From: Octopus sinensis
Taxonomy: Eukaryota
Length of the DNA stretch: 64,000 nucleotides
NCBI RefSeq assembly: GCF_006345805.1
Contig: NC_043010.1
Span: 23,312,001 to 23,376,000 of the forward strand
Reading direction: 5' to 3'
In this document: piece after piece, positions 3,282 to 49,818 of the stretch
Layout of the letters: each line of letters starts with the position of its first letter
How positions within the stretch are numbered: position 1 is the stretch's first letter
Made by a program: the position numbers and the translations under genes
Notes under the pieces: generated by a model
Database searches by the model: none
What the model was told of the DNA's origin: nothing
What the model saw: only the letters and a program-made list of their open reading frames with translations

Positions 3282-3394
3282 CATCGCCATCCATGGCATC
3301 GCCATCCATGGCATCGCCATCCATGGCATCGCCATCCATGGCATCGCCATCCATGGCATCGCCATCCATGGCATCGCCATCCATGGCATCGCCA
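3282..3394. repeat. 15-bp minisatellite (CATCGCCATCCATGG) x7.5
   Basis: Perfect units; one more than in the first copy. Confidence 0.95.
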
Positions 3395-4443
3395 GTGTCC
3401 GCCAGCAGGAACTTCAACGGACAAGCTTTGAAATCCATCTTTAATTGCTGTCATTATTTTTCCTGTTGTAACGAAGCTATAAACTTCTGCAACCAATCTT
3501 CTAATTAGGCTTCAACGAGAGTTCATTTCATAGCGACAACTTCTCACCTGACCTGAAAAGCACGTCCCTGGTATCTACAGAAGTCTGTATGTATGTCTCT
3601 CTCACTCTCTTCTTTCTCCCTCTCTCTCTTTCTCTCTCTGGGTTGGTGTGTATGTAAGTATGTGTTTGTATGAGTGTTTGTATGGTATACACGTTTGTGC
3701 TTGTCTACTACATGCGTATATAGTGATGTGTGAGTGAGTGCTTATATATAATGTATATGTATGTATATATGTATGTATGTATGTATGTATGCATGTATGT
3801 ATGCATGTATGCATGTATGTATGTATGCATGTATGCATGTATGTATGAATGTATGTGTGCATTACTACTCGCTTGTGATGTATTTATATAAGTTTGCGTG
3901 TATATATATGTGTTTATATAAGTTTGCGTCTTGTCTAAGATGTGTGTGCGTGTCTGTACTACATGTATGCAATGTGATGTGTGTTTACGCGTTTGTGTAT
4001 AATTATATGTGTGTATTCGTATGTGTGTGTAGAACCTGCTTGTGTTGTGTGTATACGTGTTTGTGTATAATTATATGTGTATATGTGTGTGTGTGCGTAG
4101 AACCTGCTTGTGGTGTGTGTATACGCGTTTGTGTATAATAATATGTGTGTATGTGTCTGTGTAGAACCTGCTTGTGTTGGTGTATGCGTATCTCTAAGTT
4201 TGTGATGACGTGTGTGTATATGGTTTTCTATAAGAGTGTGTGTGCGTGCACATTGAGGTATGTGCGTGCGAGTGTATACTTGTATATGTGTATGTATGTG
4301 TGCACCTGTTTTTAAGCATGGTTATATATGTGTATGTATATATATATAGAAATGCATGTATATATAAATATATATATGTATGTACATGTATCTGTACGTA
4401 TGTGTATATATGTATATATATATATGTATATATGTGTGTGTGC

Positions 4444-4483
<40 letters not shown>

Positions 4484-4854
4484 ATATATAAATGTAAGTA
4501 TATATATGTTTGTATATGTATGTATATATGTGTGTGTATGTGTAGGTTATGAAGAAACATCTTTAGGTGTGTGTATGTGTGTGTGTGTGTGGTGAGTTTT
4601 GAGGAGCATGTGTGCGTGTGTATATCCATGTGTATACGCATGTGTGCATGTGTTTGTATGATGGTGTGAGTGCGGTGTCGATGAGATCGTTTATTGAAAT
4701 GCTGTTCCAGATTACATTTAGAACCTCCCCCCCCAAAAAAAAGAAAAGCAGAAAAAATATAAAAAGAGGGAAAAGGAAACAAATTATTCATTTTAGATGT
4801 TTGTAATTAAGGCAACATTAAGATAACGTCAATATGAAGGATAGCAAAATAAAT

Positions 4855-8548: not shown

Positions 8549-8948
8549 ATTTAAAAATAGGATAAAATCTTCATAAGAAATTATCAAGTAGTTAACGTGA
8601 AAAACATCATAAGAGAAAAAATCTGTTAATTTTTTCCACTTGAATATATTTATTTATATTATATAGAAGGCATTATTACACATAAATGCCGCACGCTAGG
8701 AGGGATTCTTAAAGTCAAAACTACCAAAATAAACATATCGTACCGAATGCAAGTCTCGAAGCAAGTCATTTAAAAACAGAATTTAGCTGCAAATCACCAG
8801 TGATTTCGTAATTACCGAAACGCAATTCGAAAAAGGCCGCCATTTACATAGATGTATGAGGGGTGAACCGTTCTATATGCTACGGTGGATACGATGGCTG
8901 TTCGTCTGGTATGTTGATTTTGTTCATTCATTATAAATCTTGAACCAT

Positions 8949-9013
8949 GCTTGCACCGATGAGTAAAGGGCGCAACCACTGCGCTGATTACGAAATCACT
9001 GGTGATCTGCAGC
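8949..9013 (+). ncRNA. Type I hammerhead ribozyme (CCGAUGA variant)
   Basis: gcttgca-CCGATGA-gtaa[agggcgcaaccactgcgctga]ttac-GAAA-tcactggtgaTC-tgcagc; stems I, II and III all pair. Confidence 0.75.
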
Positions 9014-9132
9014 TAAATTCTGTTTTTAAATTACTTGCTTCGAGACTTGCATTCGGTACGATGTTTATTTTGGTAGTTTTGACTAGCGTGCGGCATTTAT
9101 GTGTAATAATGCCCCCTATATAATATATATAT

Positions 9133-9192
<60 letters not shown>

Positions 9193-9332
9193 TATATATA
9201 TATATATAATTCAAAAATATAAGGAATGGCCATAATAGGACATTCGACTCACTAGCAAGAGCAGCCAAACTCAAACCGCTAATAGTTGTAATTCTGAAAT
9301 TGAAAGAGAAATAAAAACGTTTACCCTTTCAA

Positions 9333-9425
9333 CTCTGGACTATGCATAGTTTCGGCAAACTTTAGTAAACAAATTAATTAAATTAAATTAAATTTATTTC
9401 CAACTGGCGTGCCTCGTCAGCAGAG
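9333..9425 (-). ncRNA. Type I hammerhead ribozyme with long stem II insertion
   Basis: ctctg-CTGACGA-ggca[52 nt]tgcc-GAAAC-tatgcata-GTC-cagag; palindromic stem III. Confidence 0.85.
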
Positions 9426-9817
9426 AAGCCAAGGACGAACATATATCCACGAGGCGATGGTAAGGAAGCCTCAAGTCTATATGCTATAAATTTTCAAAAT
9501 CTACCGCAATCGCGCGGTCAACTCAGCAGCAAATATAAACTGCTGATTTAATTTCAAAATTAGCCAAAAAATCATTAATTAATAAATATAAGGCTAGCAA
9601 AATATTCCAGAAAAAATTCTCCGCTACCAGCGGTCCGGTGAGAAGAAAAAGATAGTCAAAAATATAAGGAATGGCCATAATAGGACATTCGACTCATATT
9701 ATATAGTCTTTGACTATCTCTTCTTTCTCACCAGACCGCTGGTAGCGGAGAATTTTTTCTAGAATTTTTTGCTACCCATATATTTATTAATTATATACAT
9801 GTATATGTATACATATG

Positions 9818-9882
<65 letters not shown>

Positions 9883-9991
9883 CATACATACATACATACA
9901 TATAAATATGTGTGTGTGTGTGTGACCGCGTGTGTATCGTTGGCGATTTTCTTTCTCTCTCTTCCCTTCCTTAGACTTTTCCTTTTCCTAT

Positions 9992-13237: not shown

Positions 13238-13816
13238 AGGCGGCGAGCTGGCAGAAACGTTAGCACCCCGGGCAAAATATTTGGCGGTATTTCGTCTGCG
13301 TTACGTTGTGAGTTCAAATTCCGCCGAGGTCGACTTTGCCTTTCATCCTTTCGGGGTCGATAAATTAAGTACCAGTTACGCATTGGGGTCGATGTAATCG
13401 ACTTAATACCTATGTCTATCCTTGTTTGTCCCCTCTGTGTTTAGCCCCTTGTGGGTAATAAAGAAATAGGTATTTCGTCTGCCGCTATGTTCTGAGTTCA
13501 AAATCCGCCGAGGTCCACTTTGCCTTTCATCCTTTCGGGGTCGATAAATTGAGTACCATTTGTGCACTGGGGTCGATGTAATCGACTTAATCCGTTTGTC
13601 TGTCCTTTGTTGTCCCCTATGTGTTTAGCCCCTTGTTGGTAGTAAAGAAATAGGTATTTCGTCTACCGTTACGTTCTGAGTTCAAATACCGCCGAGATCC
13701 ACTTTGTCTTTCATCGTTTCGGGGTCGATAAATTAAGTACCAGTTGCATACTGGGGTCAGTCTAATAGACTGGCCACTCCTCAAAACTTTGGGCCATGTG
13801 CCTAGAGTAGAAAAGA
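13238..13816 (+). mobile_element. Trimeric Meta/MESC-like tRNA SINE with TSD ATATTTATCT
   Basis: Three tandem body units ('ttcaaa..ccgccgagg..gcctttcatcctttcggggtcgata'); TSD at 13222-13231 and 13817-13826. Confidence 0.85.
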
Positions 13817-15060: not shown

Positions 15061-15106
<46 letters not shown>

Positions 15107-15134
15107 AGAAAAAAGCAACAAGAATGGATTAGTT

Positions 15135-15226
15135 GTTCAGTACAATTGTTTCATACGAAGAACAGCTTTATTAAAAGCTGCAAATATTGCAGCAAATACA
15201 AGTGTCCCGTATTCATCAGCCAAAAC
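15135..15226 (-). ncRNA. PLE pLTR hammerhead with extended, branched stem II
   Basis: ttgg-CTGATGA-atacggg[~50 nt]ttcgtat-GAAAC-aatt-GTA-ctgaa; same sense as the ORF. Confidence 0.75.
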
Positions 15227-16314
15227 ACTTATGAGTTTTCCAAACATCCTAGCGGGTGAGGCTACACTCATGAAGTATCGAAGAGAGTTCTATAAAAAGC
15301 AAAGTCAGATTGTAAGCAGACTTCAAAAGTTCACTAATGATGCACAGTTTTATAAAAGGTTTTAAAAAAAGTTTGTTAGCTTCACAGAAAAGGTAAATCC
15401 ATCCATAATAATGCAGGTGTAAATTCCGGAGATATGAGGAGATATTTCATACTCAGAGACGATGAATTTATCCATAATAATGTAGATGTAATTTCCTGAT
15501 ATATGAGAAGATGCTGATCACATTTCTATTCATTTCACAAAACTACTATGTTGGAGTTATATTGTCTAAAAGAAGTTAGTGAAGCAGAAAACCGCCCAAA
15601 TAGGGCATTATGGGACAACTGAGAGGAAGGGGTGTAAGTACACAACCTACACAGAATAGTTTATTTCTGTGGTGACAGAAAATCTAGGTCAGAGTTGCAG
15701 GAATCTGAGATTTATAAAAGAGAACATTACTTTTGACCAGCATACAGCTGTTAACTGCCACTTCTACAGAGTTAAAAGCAGATATAAGAATATAAAGAGA
15801 ACAAAAGGAAGTATCAAAGGGGTCAAAGGCTATCAGTAGAGGAAAATACGTTAAGAGGTTTAAGTGCAATACAAGAACAGGAGGTTAATTATTTATTTAT
15901 TTATTTATTATTGTTACTATTTATACAAATGTTTATACATTGTATGACAGACTTTAGGTCTATACCTAGAGGTCAATTAATTTCTATAGTAAAAGGTGTG
16001 AGAGTTTTGTTTATTCAAAAAATAGTGAAAATCATAGTGAAAATTCCTTATATTATTATTAAGGGAGTAGCATTACTTATTAAACTTAGAATAGAATTAT
16101 GAAATATTAGCAACTTATTTGATTTAAGTTGGATTAATTAAATTAGATTAAAATTAGATTAAATTAAATTAACTATATAGTCAATTAAAATTTTTGGTAA
16201 CGTACAAGTACCATTTATTTCTTTGTGTCCTAAAACAGGTACTGTTAGAAAGAAAGAACACCAGTGGAAGAGCTCACAGATATCTATTTAAAATACGATT
16301 ATTCTATACGATTT

Positions 16315-19118
16315 TTATTTAAAATATTTAAGAGTCTTAATTTTCGCGTGAATACAAGATTGACCTAATTCTATACGGTTATTTAACAAATTTTTATTTT
16401 TTCTATGCCTTAGAATTTCATGTCTCCATGGAGCAGAGTTGGCAATCTACCCTGTTATTTCTATAAGGCATCGCTCTTCTAACTATTTCCCAATTAAGGT
16501 TATATTTAATATTATTATTTTTGAGTTCCCAGATCTTACTCGAAAGTGTGGTGCAACCAGCTTTATGACGTAACTTAAATGAGGAGATATGGGTGCTAAC
16601 TCTTTGTTTAAATTTTATAGTACAACCTAAATAAAAAACATTTGCTATTCTCAGTAGTTATGATACATTTATAGATTACGTTATTTACCCCACACAGATC
16701 AGGTGCCGGGCATTTTGACTTAATTCTACAATTACACCTAGGGGGATCATCTTCAGATGTAGAATTATTTAAGGATAAATATCCCATATTGTTGCTATTC
16801 TGATTATTATGAGTATATTTATCGTTATTATAGTTAATGTTGTTATCTAAAGCAGTGTTATCATTTATCGATCCGTTTATACTATCATTCAGTTCTATAG
16901 CCCTATCATAATTACTCACATTATTGGTATTGCTACTATTGTTGCTTGTATTTATATCCGAATGCATATTGCTGTTATAGATATCAATGTTGTCTTCATT
17001 CCCGATATTGTCTCTATTAGCATTGCTCATATTATTAACATTATTAATCCTATTAATATTAATATTATTATTAGTTATTCCATGGTTATTGATGCTACCT
17101 TTGTTTTGATAGTTACTATTATTGTGGTTATTATTTTTATTTTTGATAATATTATTACAATTGTTATTGGTATTCATGTTGGTATTAGTCTTATTATTCC
17201 TGGCTAGCTTAATGTTTTTATTATTAATCTTAGCTATTATAGTGGACATATTTGGGAGGGTTGAATAAGAAATCCTAACCGTTCTTTTAGAAATTATTCT
17301 ATGATATTTATGAGAGGCTGGGAATTTTTTTTCTAGAATTACTTTGAATCTGCCTTGTATATTCGATAAAATCGCACAGTTGAAAGGAATATTCAGCCAG
17401 ATTATATCTTTCTTATTAAATTTCCTTAAATTAGAATTAGGGTTAGTTGAATTATTACTAATCCCACCAGAGCTATTATATTTATTACTATTATTTGTAT
17501 GCTTTTTTTGATTTATCTAAATTGGTTTTATCAGAGTTACCTATGCTCTGGTCTATATTTTTATTCTTATGATTAGGCTTGTACGTTAGATTTGTTGCCA
17601 TCGTAAATCTATTTCTACTTTTATTTCGGGCGCGATCTATATTGTTGTTTACGTGGTTACTGCTACCTCCTTTGTTAGGAATATGTAAGCTCTCCTTATC
17701 AATAAAGGTAATCTTTTGGTTGTATCCTGCCTTAGATAACGCCGCATTATAATGCTCAGAATGAGAGTTAAATATATCATTATTAGATGATAATTTAGAG
17801 ATTCTTAAGGAAATATTTCTAACCAAAGATTTAATTATATTTGGGAGATGATTGGATAATTTATTTACGTATCTCGTGATTTCACCTTCCTTTCTAAATG
17901 GGTAATGCAGCTTAGAGTTAAGGTCTAATGTAATATCTAGGAAATTGACTATTTTAGTGCCAGGTTCATAAGTTATGCTAAGGTTGAAATCTTTAAAGAA
18001 CCTATTAATTTTCTTTCTAATCCGTTCAATGCTAGATTTATTATTACCAGGAATAACAAACAGAGCATCATCCCTGTATAGACCACCTTGTAATTCCGGG
18101 ATCTCCTTTTTTATGCACTTTAATATATACGCACCTACCAAATAGTTACCACAGCCGAATCACTAGAACCCTTGGGTATATCGAAATTATTAGGGGTATC
18201 TGCTCTAGTCCATAATTTTCCTTCAAATTCTATAAATGTTTTTCTAGCTAATAGCACTATGTCGATTTCCTCTCTAGATATGAGGGAGCGATTCATAGCA
18301 AATATAAGTGATTTATTTAGCAAAATGGGGGAAATACTAGAGTAATAATTATTCATGTCGAACTGAATAAAGGAAAGACTACTAGTATTAGTTAGAGAGT
18401 TAAACCATTTTAATACTTCATCGGTATTTAGCCAGAGACTTAAGGGAAGAATCGGGGTTATTTGGGGTAGAACAGTATCCAGGATAGATATACTAAGCCG
18501 GCCAATATCTGACTTACCGAAGGGTTTTCCATGAAATTCCTTTTGTGGTCCTTAAGGTTGATTCTAGGTTCACATGGTTTAAGCGCTCCGTTCTATCCGT
18601 TAAATTGTATCTTTCCGTAATTTCCTTCATTTCTAGGTTTATTTTTTCAAATTTTTCTTTGTAGTAATTATATATTTGGAGTTGAGTTCCTTCTTAATTA
18701 GCTTGCTATAAAGAGTGTAGTCTACTCTATACAGATTACCAGTTTTATCCGCTGGCACTAAGATTCCTTGTTTATTCCGAGTTGAATAAATAAAGTTTCT
18801 GAGATGTTTGAGGTGAGGGTTGTATCTTAACGGGTGTTCTTTGAATTTAATATCTTCTATAAGATTCAGTAAATCTTTTTCGAAATTTTCCAGGAGTGGG
18901 TTCGGAGGCGGGCTCTTTCTGCTTCTAAATATTCTCCCATAGTTCTTATCAGTATTCCTTACTTGAGGATCCTTTTTCCGCTTGACATCAAAATGGTAAG
19001 TTTTCCATTTAATTCTTCTAATGAAGTCATTAATCCTATGGATAAGTAGCCAGATATATTCATCCTAACTCTGTAAGGGGATGTCTTTAGGGGAAAACTC
19101 TATGTTTACTTTCTCCAT
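16315..19118 (-). pseudogene. PLE RT-GIY-YIG ORF, disrupted by stops and frameshifts
   Basis: MEKVNIEFSPKDIP...FIRRIKWK, VPADKTGNLY, PKGSSDS, GGLYRDDAL, VNFLDITLDL, CNCRIKSKCP...C, VIYKC...YLGCT, LNNRIELGQSCIH. Confidence 0.88.
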
Positions 19119-19201
19119 TCTTGTTGAGAAATTAAGTACCAGAAAAACATACAGACTATATGGGAATATATTTTCAGTAAAAACAATTAAGATTCAAGTG
19201 A

Positions 19202-19293
19202 GTTTTGGCTGATGAATACAGGACACTTGTATTTGCTGCAATATTTGCAGCTTTTAATGAAGCTGTTCTTGGTATAAAACAATTGTACTGAAC
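19202..19293 (+). ncRNA. Inverted, mutated copy of the pLTR hammerhead
   Basis: CTGATGA at 19209; GAAA has become AAAA. Confidence 0.55.
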
Positions 19294-19456
19294 AACTAAT
19301 CCATTCTTGTTGCTTTTTTCTTGTTTATAATCACCCCACATTATTTTATGTTTAATACCATATAGATTTCTGGTGCATCTAAGTTAAGTACTGCATTCAT
19401 GTGAATTCATTGGAATTCACTTGAATCTTAATTGTTTTAATGAATATATATATCTA

Positions 19457-23233: not shown

Positions 23234-26200
23234 TCACTCCTGTACTCTTGCAAACACTTTAATGATGTGGGAGGTGAGTGAGATTGGGCGATAGTTGACT
23301 GCGAGGGATCTGTTTCCCTGTTTGAAAACCGGGATGACCGACTGGGTTAGAAACTGTTTCGGTATATAACCTGCGTCTAACGAATTTCTCCAGAGGTTGG
23401 TCAGAGGGACTGCAAGTTGGTGTCTACATTCCTTCAGGAGACTAGCGGGGAATCTATCAGGGCCTACAGCAGAGTAGTATTTGACCTCATTTATTGCTGC
23501 TACGATGTCAGTAGCAGTGAAGGTTATGTCTGAGATTTTATGTTGGGAGTTAACTTCGTTCGCTTCTCTTACGTCAATATCAGTGGGAACACTGAAGACA
23601 GAGCAGTATTGTTTCTGCAGTATTTCTGCCATTTCTTTAGCAACGTGTTGGGGAATGCCGTTATCATCAATCAATGGCCCAATGGGTGAGACAGTAGTTC
23701 TATGTTTATTTGCATTAGAATAGAACACTTTTGGGTTCTGTTTGATGTTTTTGATTACCCACTGTTCCTCCACAGCTCTTTGATTTTCAATGGAGGTTTT
23801 CATGTCGGTCTGCAGATGAAGTTTTTCCAGCTCTAGTCTTTTCATTGTTGTTGAATGTGGATGTTGTGTGTGGGAATATTTTAATTGGTTGATTTTTTGT
23901 TGAGTCTTTTGATGCGCCTGATGAGTGTTTTTTTCTTTTTAGGGAGCCGGTTTCTGCTTGTGTTAGTAGATTTCGTGGGAGCGTGTTTAGAGCATGTATA
24001 GGTGACAATGTTTTCAAAGTACTGCCACGCGGTCTCAATATGGGAGGAATTGAGAGTAAAAGACCAGTCGATGGAAGACAGATCCTTTCTGATTGCTCCC
24101 CAGTCCGCTTTGTGGAAGTTTATGTTGTCAAATGGTTGCCATGGAGTGGGATTGGCTGGTTTGGTTTTTATATGACGGGAATTAAAATTGCAGAGTACCA
24201 TGTCGTGGTCTGAGAGAAGAGTTTTTTCAACTAAAATACTGTGAACGAAGCTAGAATGATTGGTCAATACCAGATCCGAGGTCGTTTTATTCTGCCTCGT
24301 TGGTTCGAGCTCTAGCTGAGTCAGGAAATACTCATCCATCAGATTAAAGAGCAGTTCTGCTGCTGTTCTATCTGATGTAGAGCACTTGCCTAACTTCAGA
24401 GTATTTGTGGGCCAGTTCACATGAGGGAGGTTAAAATCACCCATCACTAGTATGTTAGCGGAGTGGTACTTCCGAAGGACGGACTTGACTTTGCTAAGGC
24501 ACTCTTCAAAGCACTTTAGAGGTGCCTGGGGAGGCCTGTAAAGACCAACAATGATTATGTCCTTGGCCTTGCTGAATACTGATACCGATTCACAGTAGCC
24601 ATTGGAAAATATGTCCTCGGCATCAAGTGAAAAGGAGTCATGGATAAAAATGGCTGTCCTTCCCATATTTCGGTCTGTGCGATCCGCACGAACAATGTTG
24701 AAATCTTTTATTTTCACCTCGGCGTCCATATGGGTGTTGTTCAAGTGAGTCTCTGTAGGGATAAAGAAAGGGAAGCAATGTGCCATTTCGGCAACCAACT
24801 CTCTATTTATGGGAGCTTCCATTTTTGGGCAGTAATTCATGGGTTGATGCGACGTACATTTAACAGGAATGTCGAGGTAAGGGAAGTTGATGTTTGCATT
24901 GTTCTAAGTTATGTTTTATGTTGTTCAGTGGTACGAATGTGGGTAGTTCTTGTATGGAGCTGTGTGTGTATGATTTTCTTGTTGGTAATGGGTGTGTGGT
25001 CCTTGTGATTTGCATAGGTGGTTGCTGATAGCTCGTTGGATCTCCTGGCTTAGGTCGGCCTTCATATTTTCTAGGTAAGTTAGTAAAAAAGAGTTACCTC
25101 TTTGGTTTGCCACTTGGTCAGAGGATGCATATTTCATATTGGTGTTATTTGGTGTTACGGTTTTTTCATGGTTCTGTCTACGTTGTTTGATAGTAGGAGG
25201 GGGGAACGTGGTTGTATTTTGTTCTTGTTGTTGTCTTAGATTTCCTCTGTTGCTGTTTAAATTTATTCAGGCTGTAGTAGCAGTAGTATTAGAGTGTTGT
25301 TGTTGTTGTTGTTGCTGTAGCAACAGTGAAACTTGACTTGTAGCAGAGTGTTGTTGTTGTTGTTGTAGCAACAGTGAAACTTGACTTGTAGCAGAGTGTT
25401 GTTGTTGTTGTTGTAGCAACAGTGAAACTTGACTTGTAGCAGAGTGTTGTTGTTGTTGTTGTTGTTGTTCTTGTAGCAACAGTGAAACTTGACTTGGTCA
25501 CAAACTGTGCCAAACTTCTGTGTCACAAAGGATGTACCTGAACCCAGAATGCAACCACCATCATCTGAAGGTCAGTTGTTTGTTGCTGTTGAAGTGTCTC
25601 CTGACCTGTTGGAATTTGGTCATTTGGTGCACTGCATTCATTGGCAAGAATGGCTTCTAGTGTTGCCATGTGCGCGTGGAAAATAGGAAATATTCTTTTA
25701 ATCTCTTATTTTATTTTCGTCCTGTTTTACAGATCTGTAAATGGATTGTTTCGTTAAGTCCTCTGTTATTTTACTGTAAACATTAGCTTCGTTGTGATGA
25801 ATGAACCAAGCGTTTATCATTGCAGTAATTTCATTTTCAACCCAGCGGCGTTTTGAATATTATTGGCCATATTCAGTGGGACAGTATTGTATAATATATA
25901 TATGTATGTGTATGCGTGTATATGTATATGTACACCAGTTATTGATGGCTTGATGTAAAATAGTGAATACGTCGTTGAAAAGTTTGTGTCGATATACTCG
26001 GTATATACTTGTGTGTGGGAGAGCTCTGTGTATTTAGTACAATCAGGATGAGCGGTGTGTTTAATAGAGATCAAGGAAAAAGAATGAAGAATTGTACTCA
26101 CGGGACTAGTTTTAGAACTAGTCTTGGGTTTAGTTTTGGTTTATATTTCTTTCTCCAGGTTGTATATAGATTTGTATAAATTAATCCTCGGATGGTAGTA

Positions 26201-40524: not shown

Positions 40525-41096
40525 AGGCGGCGTGGTGGCGGAAACATTAACACACCAGGGGAAATGCTAAGCGGTATTTTGTCTGTCTTTACGTTCTGAG
40601 TTCAAATTCCGCGGATGTCGACTTTCCCTTTCATCCTTTCGGGGTCGATAAATTAAGGACCAGTTACGCACTGGTATTGACTTAATCCGTGTGTCTGTCC
40701 TTGTTTGTCCCCTCTATGTTTAGCACCTTGTGGGTAGTAAAGAAATAGGTTTTTCGTCTGCCGCTACGTTCTGATTTCAAATGTCGCCGAGGTCGACTTT
40801 GCCTTTCAACCTTTCGGGGTCGATTAAATAAGTACCAATTACGCACTGGAGTCGATATAATCGACTTAATCCGTTTGTCTGTCCTTGATTGTCCTCTCTG
40901 TGTTTAGCCCCTTGTGGGTAGTAAAGAAATAGGTATTTTGTCTGTCTTTACGTTCTGAGTTCAAATTCCGCGGAGGTCGACTTTGCCTTTGATCATTTCG
41001 GGGTCGACAAATTAAGTACCAGTTGCGTACTGGGGTCGATCTAGTCGACTAGCTCCCTCCACAAAAATTTCGGGCCATGTGCCTAGAGTAGCAAAG
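40525..41096 (+). mobile_element. Trimeric Meta/MESC-like SINE with TSD AATATTTATCTG
   Basis: TSD at 40506-40517 and 41097-41108. Confidence 0.85.
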
Positions 41097-45343: not shown

Positions 45344-45377
<34 letters not shown>

Positions 45378-45595
45378 ACTAATGTAGGATTTTTTTTTTT
45401 TCGGGAAAAAAAATTTTATCAATGGCCAGCATATCAAAAAATACCTTTAAAGGTTAAATTTATAAATAATTTACAAGATAAGGGTAAAAGAAAAATTCTA
45501 ATGCCAAATATGCCGAAAAAAAGACAAGACTTTTCAATAACCGTTATAATTTATGCGTCTCGAAACAAACCGATAGAAATCTCTAAAAAATTCGT

Positions 45596-45658
45596 TATTA
45601 CCGTATTGGTCCAATTTCGGGGTTAATTAATAAGTTTTTCCCTCTTCAGCGGCAAATA
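45596..45658 (-). ncRNA. Type I hammerhead ribozyme
   Basis: tatttgccg-CTGAAGA-ggg[aaaaacttattaattaac]ccc-GAAA-ttggaccaa-TA-cggtaata. Confidence 0.75.
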
Positions 45659-45920
45659 CGCGAGATATAAATGAAATACTTACTCATACCCATGGAAAAA
45701 GCAAGCACCAAGTCCAGAGCAGACCTAAGTACCCCAAATATATCCAAAATAGAAAAATCTTCGGCACATCTCGAGAGACACGTATGATTCGAACTAGAAA
45801 CTTTCACAGAATGAGAGAATCCGGAAGTGAAACACTATTCAATTTATAACTAATGTAGGATAAAATTATTTTTGTTTCCGGAAAAAAATTATACATATAT
45901 ATATCTATCTCTATTATCTA

Positions 45921-46846: not shown

Positions 46847-47095
46847 ATATATATATGTATGTATACATATATATGTATGTGTGTGTATGTTTGTGTGTCG
46901 GTGCTTCCCCACCATCACTTGACAACTGATGTTGATGTGTTCACGTCCCCGTTATCTAGCGGTTCGACAAAAGACACCGACAGAATAAGTCCTAAGCTTA
47001 CAAAGAATAAGTCATGAGGTCTATTTGTTCGACTAAAGACGGTGCTTCAGCATGGTCGCAGTCAAATGACTGAAACAAACAAAACAGCAAAAGAA
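46622..47095 (+). mobile_element. CORE-type SINE with expanded internal microsatellite
   Basis: Head at 46622-46735; tail at 46890-47095. Confidence 0.8.
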
Positions 47096-47120
47096 TATAT
47101 ATATATATATATATATATAT

Positions 47121-49818
47121 GTTGGTCTTTACAGGCCTCCCCAGGCACCTCTAAAGTACTTTGAAGAGTGCCTTAGCAAAGTCAAGTCCTTCCTTCGGAA
47201 GTACCACTCCGGAAACATACTAGTGATGGGTGATTTTAACCTCCCTCATGTGAACTGGCCCACAAATACTCTGAAGTTAGGCAAGTGCTCTACATCAGAT
47301 AGAACAGCAGCAGAACTGCTCTTTAATCTGATGGATGAGTATTTCCTGACTCAGCTAGAGCTGGAACCAACGAGGCAGAATAAAACGATCTTGGATCTGG
47401 CACTGACCAATCACTCTAGCTACGTTCACAGTATTTCAGTCGAAAAAACTCTCCTAGCAGACCACGACATGGTACTCTGCAATCTTAATTCCCGACATAT
47501 AAAAACCAAACCAGCCAATCCCACTCCATGGCACCTATTTGACAACATAAACGTCCACAAAGCGGACTGGGGAGCAATTAGAAAGGATCTGTCTTCCATC
47601 GACTGGTCTTTTACACTCAATTCCTCTCATATTGAGACCGCGTGGCAGCACTTTGAAAACATTGTCACCTATACATGCTCTAAACACGCTCCCACGAAAT
47701 CTACTAACACAAACAGAAACCGGCTCCCTAAAAAGAAAAAAAAAACACTCATCAGGCGCATCAAAAGACTCCAGAAAAAAATCAACCAATTAAAATATTC
47801 CCACACACAACATCCACATTCAACAACAATGAAAAGACTAGAGCTGGAAAAACTTCATCTGCAGACCAACATGAAAACCTCCATTGAAGATAAAAGAGCT
47901 GTGGAGGAACAATGGGTAATCAAAAACAACAAACAGAACCCAAAAGTGTTCTATTCTTATACAAATAAGTATAGAACCACTGTCTCACCCATTGGGCCAT
48001 TGATTGATGATAACGGCATTCCCCAACACGGTGCTAAAGAAATGGCAGAAATACTGCAGAAACAATACTGCTCTGTCTTTAGTGTTCCCACTGATACTGA
48101 CGTAAGGGAAACGAACGAAGTTGACTCCCAACACAAAATCTCAGACATAACCTTCACTGCCACCGACATCGTAGCAGCAGTAAATGAGGTCAAACATTAC
48201 TCTGCTGTAGGCCCTGATAGATTTCCCGCTAGTCTCCTGAAGGAATGTAGATACCAACTTGCAGTCCCTCTGACCAACCTCTGCAGAAATTCGTTAGACG
48301 CAGGTTATATACCGAAACAGTTTCTATCCCAGTCGGTCATCCCGGTTTTCAAACAGGGAAACAGATCCCTCGCACTCAACTATCGCCCAATCTCACTCAC
48401 CTCCCACATCATTAAAGTGTTTGAAAGAGTGTTAAGATCAAGGATAGCTGACTTCCTGGAGACCCACAAACTCCTAAATGCAAATCAGCATGGCTTTCGC
48501 TGTGGCAGGGACTGTCTAACACAGCTCTTACACCACATTGAAGATGTACTCAAAGCCTAGGGAACAGGTTCGAACTCTGACGTCATATATCTTGACTTCA
48601 GTAAAGCGTTCGACAGGGTAGACCATAACATCCTACTCTCAAAATTGGCAAACGTTGGAATCCGTGGAAAAGTTCTACACTGGATTAAGTATTTCCTGGC
48701 GAATAGAACACAACATGTTGTAGTTGATGGAGTCCACTCAAACCCAGCAAAAGTCACCAGCAGTGTTCCCCAGGGAACTGTTTTGGGTCCGCTACTCTTC
48801 ATAATTTACGTAAACGACCTTTCCAGTGTCGTACATTACTGCAAAGTGAAAATATTTGCTGATGACACTAAGCTCCAGCAAATCGTCAATGAAGAAGAAG
48901 ACCGAACTCAACTCCAGTCTGATCTATATGCTGTGAGTCAATGGGCAGACAGAAACATAATGCAACTGAATGAGGGAAAATTTGAGCTGATGCATTTTGG
49001 AAGAAATTCCTCACTAAAACCACCATACTCTCTTCCTTCAGGGGAACCGCTCACAGCCTCTAACAATATCATAAACCTGGGTGTAATTGTTGATGACGAT
49101 CTCAGTTGGAGTGCACACATCAACAAGAAGGTCGATATAGCTCGTAGGATGAGTTCCTGGATCTTAAGAACTTTCCGGTCCTGAGAACAAGGTGTCATCA
49201 TACCACTTTTTTCCTCCTTTGTACGGCCACACCTTGAATACTGCTGCCCACTGTGGTCTCCTCACACAAGACAAAACATCTCAGAATTGAGTCACCCAAG
49301 AGGGCACTCGCTAAACAAATTGAAGGCATGGCTGCTCTCGATTATTGGGATCGCCTTAAAGCCTTGACACTTTACTCCCTCCAGCGTCGACGTGAGCGGT
49401 ACATCATTTGTACGATGTGGAAAATATACCGCCAACTTTGCCCAAACGACCTAAACATTAGCTTCAAGGTTCATCCAAGACTTGGACCACGGGCTATACC
49501 CAATTCAAGATCACAACATACATGTACACTGCAACATAATTTCTTTTCCTCAACAGGCCCTGCCCTATTTAACATTGTCCCGAGGGAGATCAAAGAGGAA
49601 AAGGATCCCATCAACTTTAAACGGAGTCTGGATAGATTCCTTCAAAGAATACCAGATAAGCCACCCATAATTGGATACCATTTACCCAACAAGAACTCAC
49701 TACTTGAACAAAACTTGACTTAAACAGGATTCGAATAATCCTATCAGGTGGTGCTATTAAGTTAGACATGGCCTGGACCAATCTTTGGTCGAAACATATC
49801 TAAGTTTATCTAAGTCTA

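Follow-up and report, generated by a model that had tools for sequence, protein, structure and literature searches.

Penelope-like elements (PLEs) of the Hydra clade carry a type I hammerhead on the sense strand near their 3' end, with a palindromic helix III and a stem I of 4-5 bp (PMC8557442; PMC4209133; PMC3846280), and PLE insertions are described as partial tandems with an inverted 5' copy and a bias for TA targets (PMC8557442). Besides the palindromic helix III, PLE hammerheads are reported to show low activity as monomers and folding as dimers (PMC4209133; review PMC6765202). In vitro, the PLE protein of an anole cuts AT-rich DNA, extends both strands and starts at two internal sites of the RNA; its hammerhead cut only with the protein, and cleavage was dispensable for insertion (PMC11167929). 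Metazoan retrozymes measure 170-400 nt, those of mussel 350-390 bp (PMC7229834), and retrozymes, solo monomers included, have been presented as non-autonomous PLE derivatives (bioRxiv 10.64898/2026.07.22.740005).

The locus described here is an insertion at positions 9209-9793 of a 64-kb stretch of DNA that was analysed as a whole (the window). It is a dispersed copy of a multi-copy, non-coding family with a canonical type I hammerhead, and likely a non-autonomous derivative of PLEs, whose enzymes would have copied it into TA microsatellites. It shares with the Hydra-clade PLEs the sense-strand hammerhead near the 3' end, the palindromic helix III and the short stem I, as well as the partial tandem, the inverted 5' copy and the insertion in (TA)n, but it has no ORF for a reverse transcriptase (RT) and GIY-YIG endonuclease. 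Its helix III comprises 12 nt, versus 4-10 nt in Hydra-type motifs, most of which have an extra unpaired nucleotide after A9 that is missing here, and its inverted extension of ~97 nt compares with a tail of 30-40 bp described for PLEs (PMC8557442; PMC4209133; PMC3846280).

The metazoan non-LTR retrozymes resemble it in being non-coding units of a few hundred bases, with less than 45% GC, one type I hammerhead, a well-paired structure and a proposed mobilisation by PLEs (PMC7229834; bioRxiv 10.64898/2026.07.22.740005), whereas the inverted 5' piece of PLE type and the helix II of 60 nt set the locus apart, which moreover is known as a single unit. The PLE-X1 elements of Selaginella have PLE hammerheads with an enlarged helix II, marked as non-canonical in File S2, but belong to a plant, lack the endonuclease, target 28S rDNA and code for protein, and their helix II as tabulated is not AT-rich (PMC8557442). 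Finally, the putatively non-autonomous PLEs of Chlamys such as MRC1 are likewise short, with pseudo-LTRs and head-to-tail copies, and depend on autonomous PLEs; being green algal elements that as a rule share their 3' end with a partner (PMC8557442), they differ from the insertion, for which none was found.

Layout and setting of the insertion

The following parts were distinguished.

9209-9793 (minus strand): whole insertion, 585 bp, non-coding, flanked by TA-rich microsatellites, from repeat and microsatellite maps
9211-9251 (minus strand): downstream copy of repeat D, forming the last 41 nt at the 3' end of the element and 100% identical to 9656-9696
9656-9696 (minus strand): repeat D, upstream copy, a terminal redundancy and remnant of the preceding unit (41 nt, 100% identity, spacing 445)
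9426-9655 (minus strand): leader of the unit, 5' of the hammerhead, from contigs joining leader to hammerhead
9697-9793 (plus strand): inverted copy of the first ~97 nt of the leader, facing the main unit head to head and identical to the inner copy at 72 of 80 nt
9177-9208 (no strand): (TA)n microsatellite, 3' flank, likely insertion target
9794-9909 (no strand): TA-rich microsatellite, 5' flank, likely insertion target

A preliminary description of this DNA had proposed a 41-bp terminal direct repeat defining a 445-bp unit, followed by an inverted tail. Both repeats were found as described, the copies of repeat D being identical and 445 bp apart, and the inverted arms (9576-9660 and 9709-9793) extending over 85 nt with 91% complementarity. 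The 445-bp spacing is real at this locus, but it is probably specific to it, since the unit of the family is probably longer (see below). The GC content of the unit is 36%. An ORF for RT and GIY-YIG, as in an autonomous PLE, is absent from the insertion, in which the largest ATG-ORF has 51 aa. A target duplication was not discernible at 9209-9793, the longest word common to both flanks being 6 nt of TA. The tRNA-like head of tRNA-derived SINEs was not found either, as ARAGORN detected no genes in the window and Rfam gave no such match in 9205-9700. Neither a second copy of the element nor a second hammerhead unit is present within the 64 kb.

The insertion thus combines several traits of non-autonomous PLEs, namely the partial-tandem terminal repeat, the inverted 5' copy, the insertion in (TA)n without clear duplication and the fixed 3' end. 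A non-autonomous PLE derivative is the most likely identity because the terminal redundancy, the inverted 5' piece, the TA target and the palindromic helix III match PLE insertions.

The wider window is eukaryotic DNA rich in microsatellites, with LINE-type and other repeats in a state of decay and a repeat landscape reminiscent of octopus. Two of the decayed LINE-type copies, at 47070-49723 (plus strand) and 23234-24903 (minus strand), have endonuclease domains, and one of them also has an RT domain (Pfam). Repeats of 184 bp, in tandem and belonging to one SINE-like family, occupy 13286-13758 and 40573-41050 with 2.6 copies at each site. The segments 1606-2786 and 3282-4529 form a ~1.69-kb local duplication; they agree in their microsatellite pattern, and the duplication may have arisen in the assembly. 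A fold-back element at 8645-9137 adjoins the insertion; it has TA flanks and imperfect inverted arms of 55, 24 and 90 nt (91-100%), and the descriptor scan found no hammerhead in it. A second short non-coding element stands between microsatellites at 45376-45899 (minus strand), with an imperfect terminal direct repeat of ~50 bp spaced by ~471-476 bp and a type I hammerhead (45655-45598) with a 24-nt helix II, a near-palindromic helix III and an AUA site. Its kinship with the insertion was rejected: shuffled sequences scored as well in 4 of 300 cases under loose scoring and in 218 and 268 of 300 under two stricter schemes.

Anatomy, detection and predicted folding of the hammerhead

The hammerhead and its parts, all on the minus strand, are as follows.

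9333-9425 (minus strand): type I hammerhead motif, 93 nt, from descriptor scan and sequence
9421-9425 (minus strand): stem I, 5' strand, 5 bp, pairing with 9337-9333
9414-9420 (minus strand): catalytic core CUGACGA, read off the sequence
9354-9413 (minus strand): helix II, 60 nt, a G-C-closed 4-bp basal stem and a predicted irregular AT-rich hairpin
9350-9353 (minus strand): catalytic core GAAA, read off the sequence
9339-9350 (minus strand): helix III, a perfect 12-nt palindrome
9337-9338 (minus strand): predicted cleavage site, 3' of C9338 (GUC), from the hammerhead consensus

The motif has the CUGANGA, GAAA and NUH elements of a type I hammerhead around three helices, open at helix I, and both the G10.1-C11.1 closing pair and the A15.1-U16.1 pair are present, so that the canonical core (CUGACGA, GAAA, GUC) with a 5-bp stem I previously proposed for 9425-9333 is borne out. 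Most other copies could form a sixth pair in stem I (9426-9332), as position 9332 differs from that of the locus at nearly all depth in all four runs analysed below. A strict descriptor matched once in the window, at this motif, and a relaxed descriptor three times, while neither matched in 200 block-wise dinucleotide shuffles; a chance origin of the motif is excluded.

Basal helix II is formed by 9413-9410 and 9357-9354 (4 bp), and the 52 nt between the two strands are 81% AT. These 52 nt, which had been regarded as a very long loop, are indeed of that length and composition, but they are predicted to be mostly paired, in an irregular hairpin of -12.9 kcal/mol, and a loop is therefore the wrong picture. 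The 12-bp palindromic stem III proposed earlier also needs qualification: the palindrome of 12 nt is real, but the monomer would form 4 bp closed by a tetraloop, and the 12-bp duplex (predicted at -15.9 kcal/mol) only between two molecules. Stem I is predicted to have a distal extension, and a short loop II of the usual kind is missing. In the predictions the active fold differs from the ground state, lying 2.5-2.6 kcal/mol above the ensemble in pieces of 93-131 nt and 7.5 kcal/mol above it in the 445-nt unit. A 106-nt piece alone folds no better than shuffles (z -0.9), the whole unit far better on the hammerhead strand (z -4.5, 0 of 100 shuffles) and with z -2.0 on the opposite strand. Cleavage after C9338 is predicted to be weak in the monomer and better in a dimer formed through the 12-nt palindrome or with the help of a protein.

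The expectation that the motif would escape standard searches held in that Rfam reported no hammerhead, either among the two matches in 9205-9700 at E<=10 or, at 9425-9333, among the 150 of 198 matches listed for the whole window. However, the short-armed hammerhead at 45655-45598 is likewise absent among those 150 of 198, and the length of helix II alone therefore cannot account for the miss. Matches to miRNA and snoRNA families were rejected, as their scores fell well short of the threshold and are attributable to composition or to the inverted repeat. Exact core patterns had no match in viral and metagenome contigs.

Other copies and the extent of the family

Contigs aligning to 9195-9800 at 80% likeness were obtained from four of the 24 runs listed, X1, X3, X10 and X11 (983, 929, 326 and 30 contigs, respectively), most of them with 90-99% identity. 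The four runs belong to four studies under three organism labels, X11 being RNA by a guess; as the data are contigs only, their depth is not copy number and is mute on strand and expression. Loose ends at 9209 lead into mixed, AT-rich letters (16 and 13 contigs, agreement 0.66-0.68), which indicates that the 3' end is constant and the insertion sites vary. Opposite-strand joints (9209-9710, 9209-9701 and 9220-9710) occur in X1, X3 and X11, with one contig each per run, and letters resembling the 3' end of the element stand before 9696 in 11, 2 and 1 contigs of three runs. In other copies, therefore, the 3' end is followed by 9697-9793 read on the plus strand, so that these contig joints identify 9697-9793 as leader in sense orientation and the head-to-tail junction as a family trait. 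If, as we infer, the family junction includes 9697-9713, the unit would measure 464-465 bp and the locus would be short by 19-20 nt between identical 5-nt words; the family unit is thus probably ~465 bp.

The same joints might suggest a true non-LTR retrozyme, in which tandem-array transcripts would be cut by consecutive hammerheads into ~465-nt monomers, circularised and reverse transcribed, the locus being a product of 1.1 units. We regard this as unlikely. Joints of the 3' end to the leader in other copies, including those of the run guessed to be RNA, agree with it, the size, 36% GC and high pairing recall described metazoan retrozymes (PMC7229834), and the terminal redundancy, which is not in register with the cut site, is what a circular template would produce. 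Yet the joints are also present in DNA runs and need no circle, the locus has one hammerhead with no second copy in 64 kb, no dimer occurs among the contig pieces listed, the longest of which covers 224 nt, and the inverted piece is a trait of PLE insertions. The insertion is classed as a non-autonomous PLE derivative or a solo retrozyme-type unit rather than as a retrozyme proper, which would call for arrays and circles.

Contigs running from leader to hammerhead, with no room for an ORF, were found in three of the four runs among the pieces listed. The hammerhead motif is spanned by 6 of the 32 contig pieces listed (2,279 further pieces exist), whose total length differs from that of the locus by 0, 0, -5, -6, -6 and -14 nt. 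Because these pieces keep nearly the full length, the long helix II is common to the family and, in contrast to what a locus-specific insertion would imply, not private to this copy. One joint in X3, from 9264 to 9553, omits the whole hammerhead, and some copies therefore lack it.

Added up over the contigs, depth on the leader and on the last ~120 nt exceeds that in the middle several-fold. One contig of 475 nt aligns over 9363-9281 only, with 392 unmatched letters upstream, and two contigs depart from the leader at 9470 into other sequence. Such a pattern is what might be seen if the locus were a one-off remnant left by an autonomous PLE, reduced to its 3' end by 5' truncation or internal deletion, rather than a member of a mobile short-unit family. 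This is distinctly improbable, however, as the middle is still found in many contigs (up to 17 per variant, at 9473) and the leader is joined to the hammerhead in three runs, while contig depth does not equal copy number and is also lowered by the greater variability of the middle. The skipping joint, the 475-nt contig and the low depth of the middle rather point to longer or divergent relatives that probably share the ends of the element. Contig e1-7788996 had suggested that many copies might be stubs that begin at the cut site; this was rejected because there is no depth step at 9337 in X3 (47,467 then 47,908) and X10 (2,563 then 2,535), the step being confined to X1 (33,414 then 18,741).

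Variation among the copies was assessed on 38 variable positions, taken from the 40 of 83 variant rows that were listed, the other 43 rows being weaker and contigs below 80% likeness falling outside the comparison. None of the 38 lies on the 15 core nucleotides. Within 9320-9475, an interval picked after the data had been seen, the 41 core and stem positions hold one of the 19 variable positions listed, against 6.7 expected (P=0.0015); the depletion has P=0.011 within 9300-9530 and is not significant over the whole element (1 versus 2.9 expected, P=0.20). Conservation of the core in other copies, on which the preliminary description depended, is thus seen at the listed positions but not as an element-wide effect, and local constraint on the hammerhead core is suggestive only.

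These positions also bear on whether the locus could be a dead relic whose long AT-rich arm arose by slippage of a short AT repeat and disabled the ribozyme. The arm does hold tandem 5-nt AT units and varies by ~5-6 nt between copies, and the predicted ground-state fold differs from the active one; nevertheless, all 15 core positions are canonical and free of listed variation, pairing is predicted for the arm, a non-repetitive arm of equal length exists in an unrelated PLE (see below), and the 0 of 200 shuffles exclude chance. We therefore consider a dead relic highly improbable.

Long helices II, the neighbouring Penelope-like element and the proposed mode of insertion

A frameshifted Hydra-type PLE lies inside (TA)n at 15099-19430 (minus strand). 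It has RWK-like and DKT motifs, a CxCx5C linker, CxxC and CxH, which are marks of the Hydra clade (PMC8557442), and a search with its RT piece gave 3,153 relatives at E<=0.001, a consensus of 30 of which bears the same marks. An inverted copy of 141 nt of its 3' end (19189-19329) is extended by ~100 nt into the leader, to 19430. The region after its ORF is unusually long (~1.2 kb), and between the RT part and the endonuclease linker it has a long asparagine-rich in-frame stretch (16760-17250, minus strand), similar to N-rich inserts known from Penelope families of Adineta (PMC3846280). Pfam recognised none of four broken frames of this PLE, pairwise comparison with a LINE-type RT gave nothing, and its protein, alone or as an alignment, had no relative in viral contigs.

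The insertion and this PLE have the TA target, the inverted 5' copy and the palindromic helix III in common. Derivation of the one from the other was nevertheless rejected, as 9209-9793 has no significant sequence match with the 3' or 5' ends of the PLE, which is for this reason an analogue and not the shown partner. A comparison with 77 metagenomic Hydra-type loci gave no significant match either, the one hit being an AT-rich match of 37 nt (E=0.01), so that no autonomous partner was found among the neighbouring PLE and these 77 loci.

The 77 distinct loci, obtained with an alignment of eight proteins from the best 80 of 460 confirmed matches, also served as a baseline for helix II; selected for their similarity to a single protein, they do not represent independent lineages. 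With up to 150 nt allowed for helix II, a hammerhead at a stem score of at least 12 was found in 50 of the 77, and the 51 distinct motifs had helix II spans of 10-25 nt (median 17, none of 30 nt or more). A looser scan of the other 27 loci gave spans of 10-29 nt in 7 and nothing in 20, with one weak candidate of 135 nt that has a 2-bp helix II. Three loci (L004, L045 and L077) hold two different hammerhead motifs each, 137 nt apart in L077. The 60-nt helix II at 9354-9413 is thus more than twice as long as those of the 51 measured motifs, and the unrelated PLE ~6 kb away has a hammerhead (15224-15136) likewise with 60 nt between its core halves. The 26 rows of Hydra-clade hammerheads in File S2 of PMC8557442 have loops of 3-10 nt, and two Selaginella PLE hammerheads have ~54 and ~48 nt between the core halves, as counted from the table, so that a long arm has published precedent. 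The literature searched, which mostly did not extend to subscription journals, yielded no account of the family and no animal PLE with 60-nt arms; the supplements of PMC4209133, PMC7229834 and 10.64898/2026.07.22.740005 might hold such motifs.

The 60-nt helix II most likely represents a hairpin expansion that the whole family tolerates in place of the usual short loop II. It seems rather doubtful that unrelated PLE families of this lineage grew helices II of ~60 nt independently and that the arm has a job, either replacing the contact of loop I with loop II or docking the protein of the element, cleavage then depending on the pairing of two RNAs or on the protein. If so, many such ribozymes would be invisible to short-loop searches, and PLEs regarded as hammerhead-less or as having half a core would include active long-armed ribozymes. 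As two unrelated 60-nt helices II occur in one 64-kb window, versus at most 25 nt in 51 motifs, short-loop descriptors may undercount hammerheads in genomes of this sort. In itself the long helix II is a modest variant, and since this kind of element has already been described, it is mainly one family that is added.

For the non-autonomous PLE derivative that we favour, mobilisation in trans, a long template and a second priming event are suggested by the data on the anole PLE (PMC11167929). The template would be an RNA longer than one unit, either a tandem read-through transcript or a circle, to which a PLE reverse transcriptase/GIY-YIG protein would bind in trans and nick the TA repeat. A cDNA would be primed at the 3' end of the family (9209), and copying of one unit plus 41 nt of the preceding unit would yield the terminal repeat. 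A second cDNA, on the other strand and with an internal start ~97 nt into the leader, would produce the inverted piece, the two cDNAs meeting head to head; alternatively, this inversion could arise by self-priming on an antisense template (PMC3846280). The insertion at 9209-9793 would thereby constitute a compact natural record of the two-start-site model of PLE insertion.
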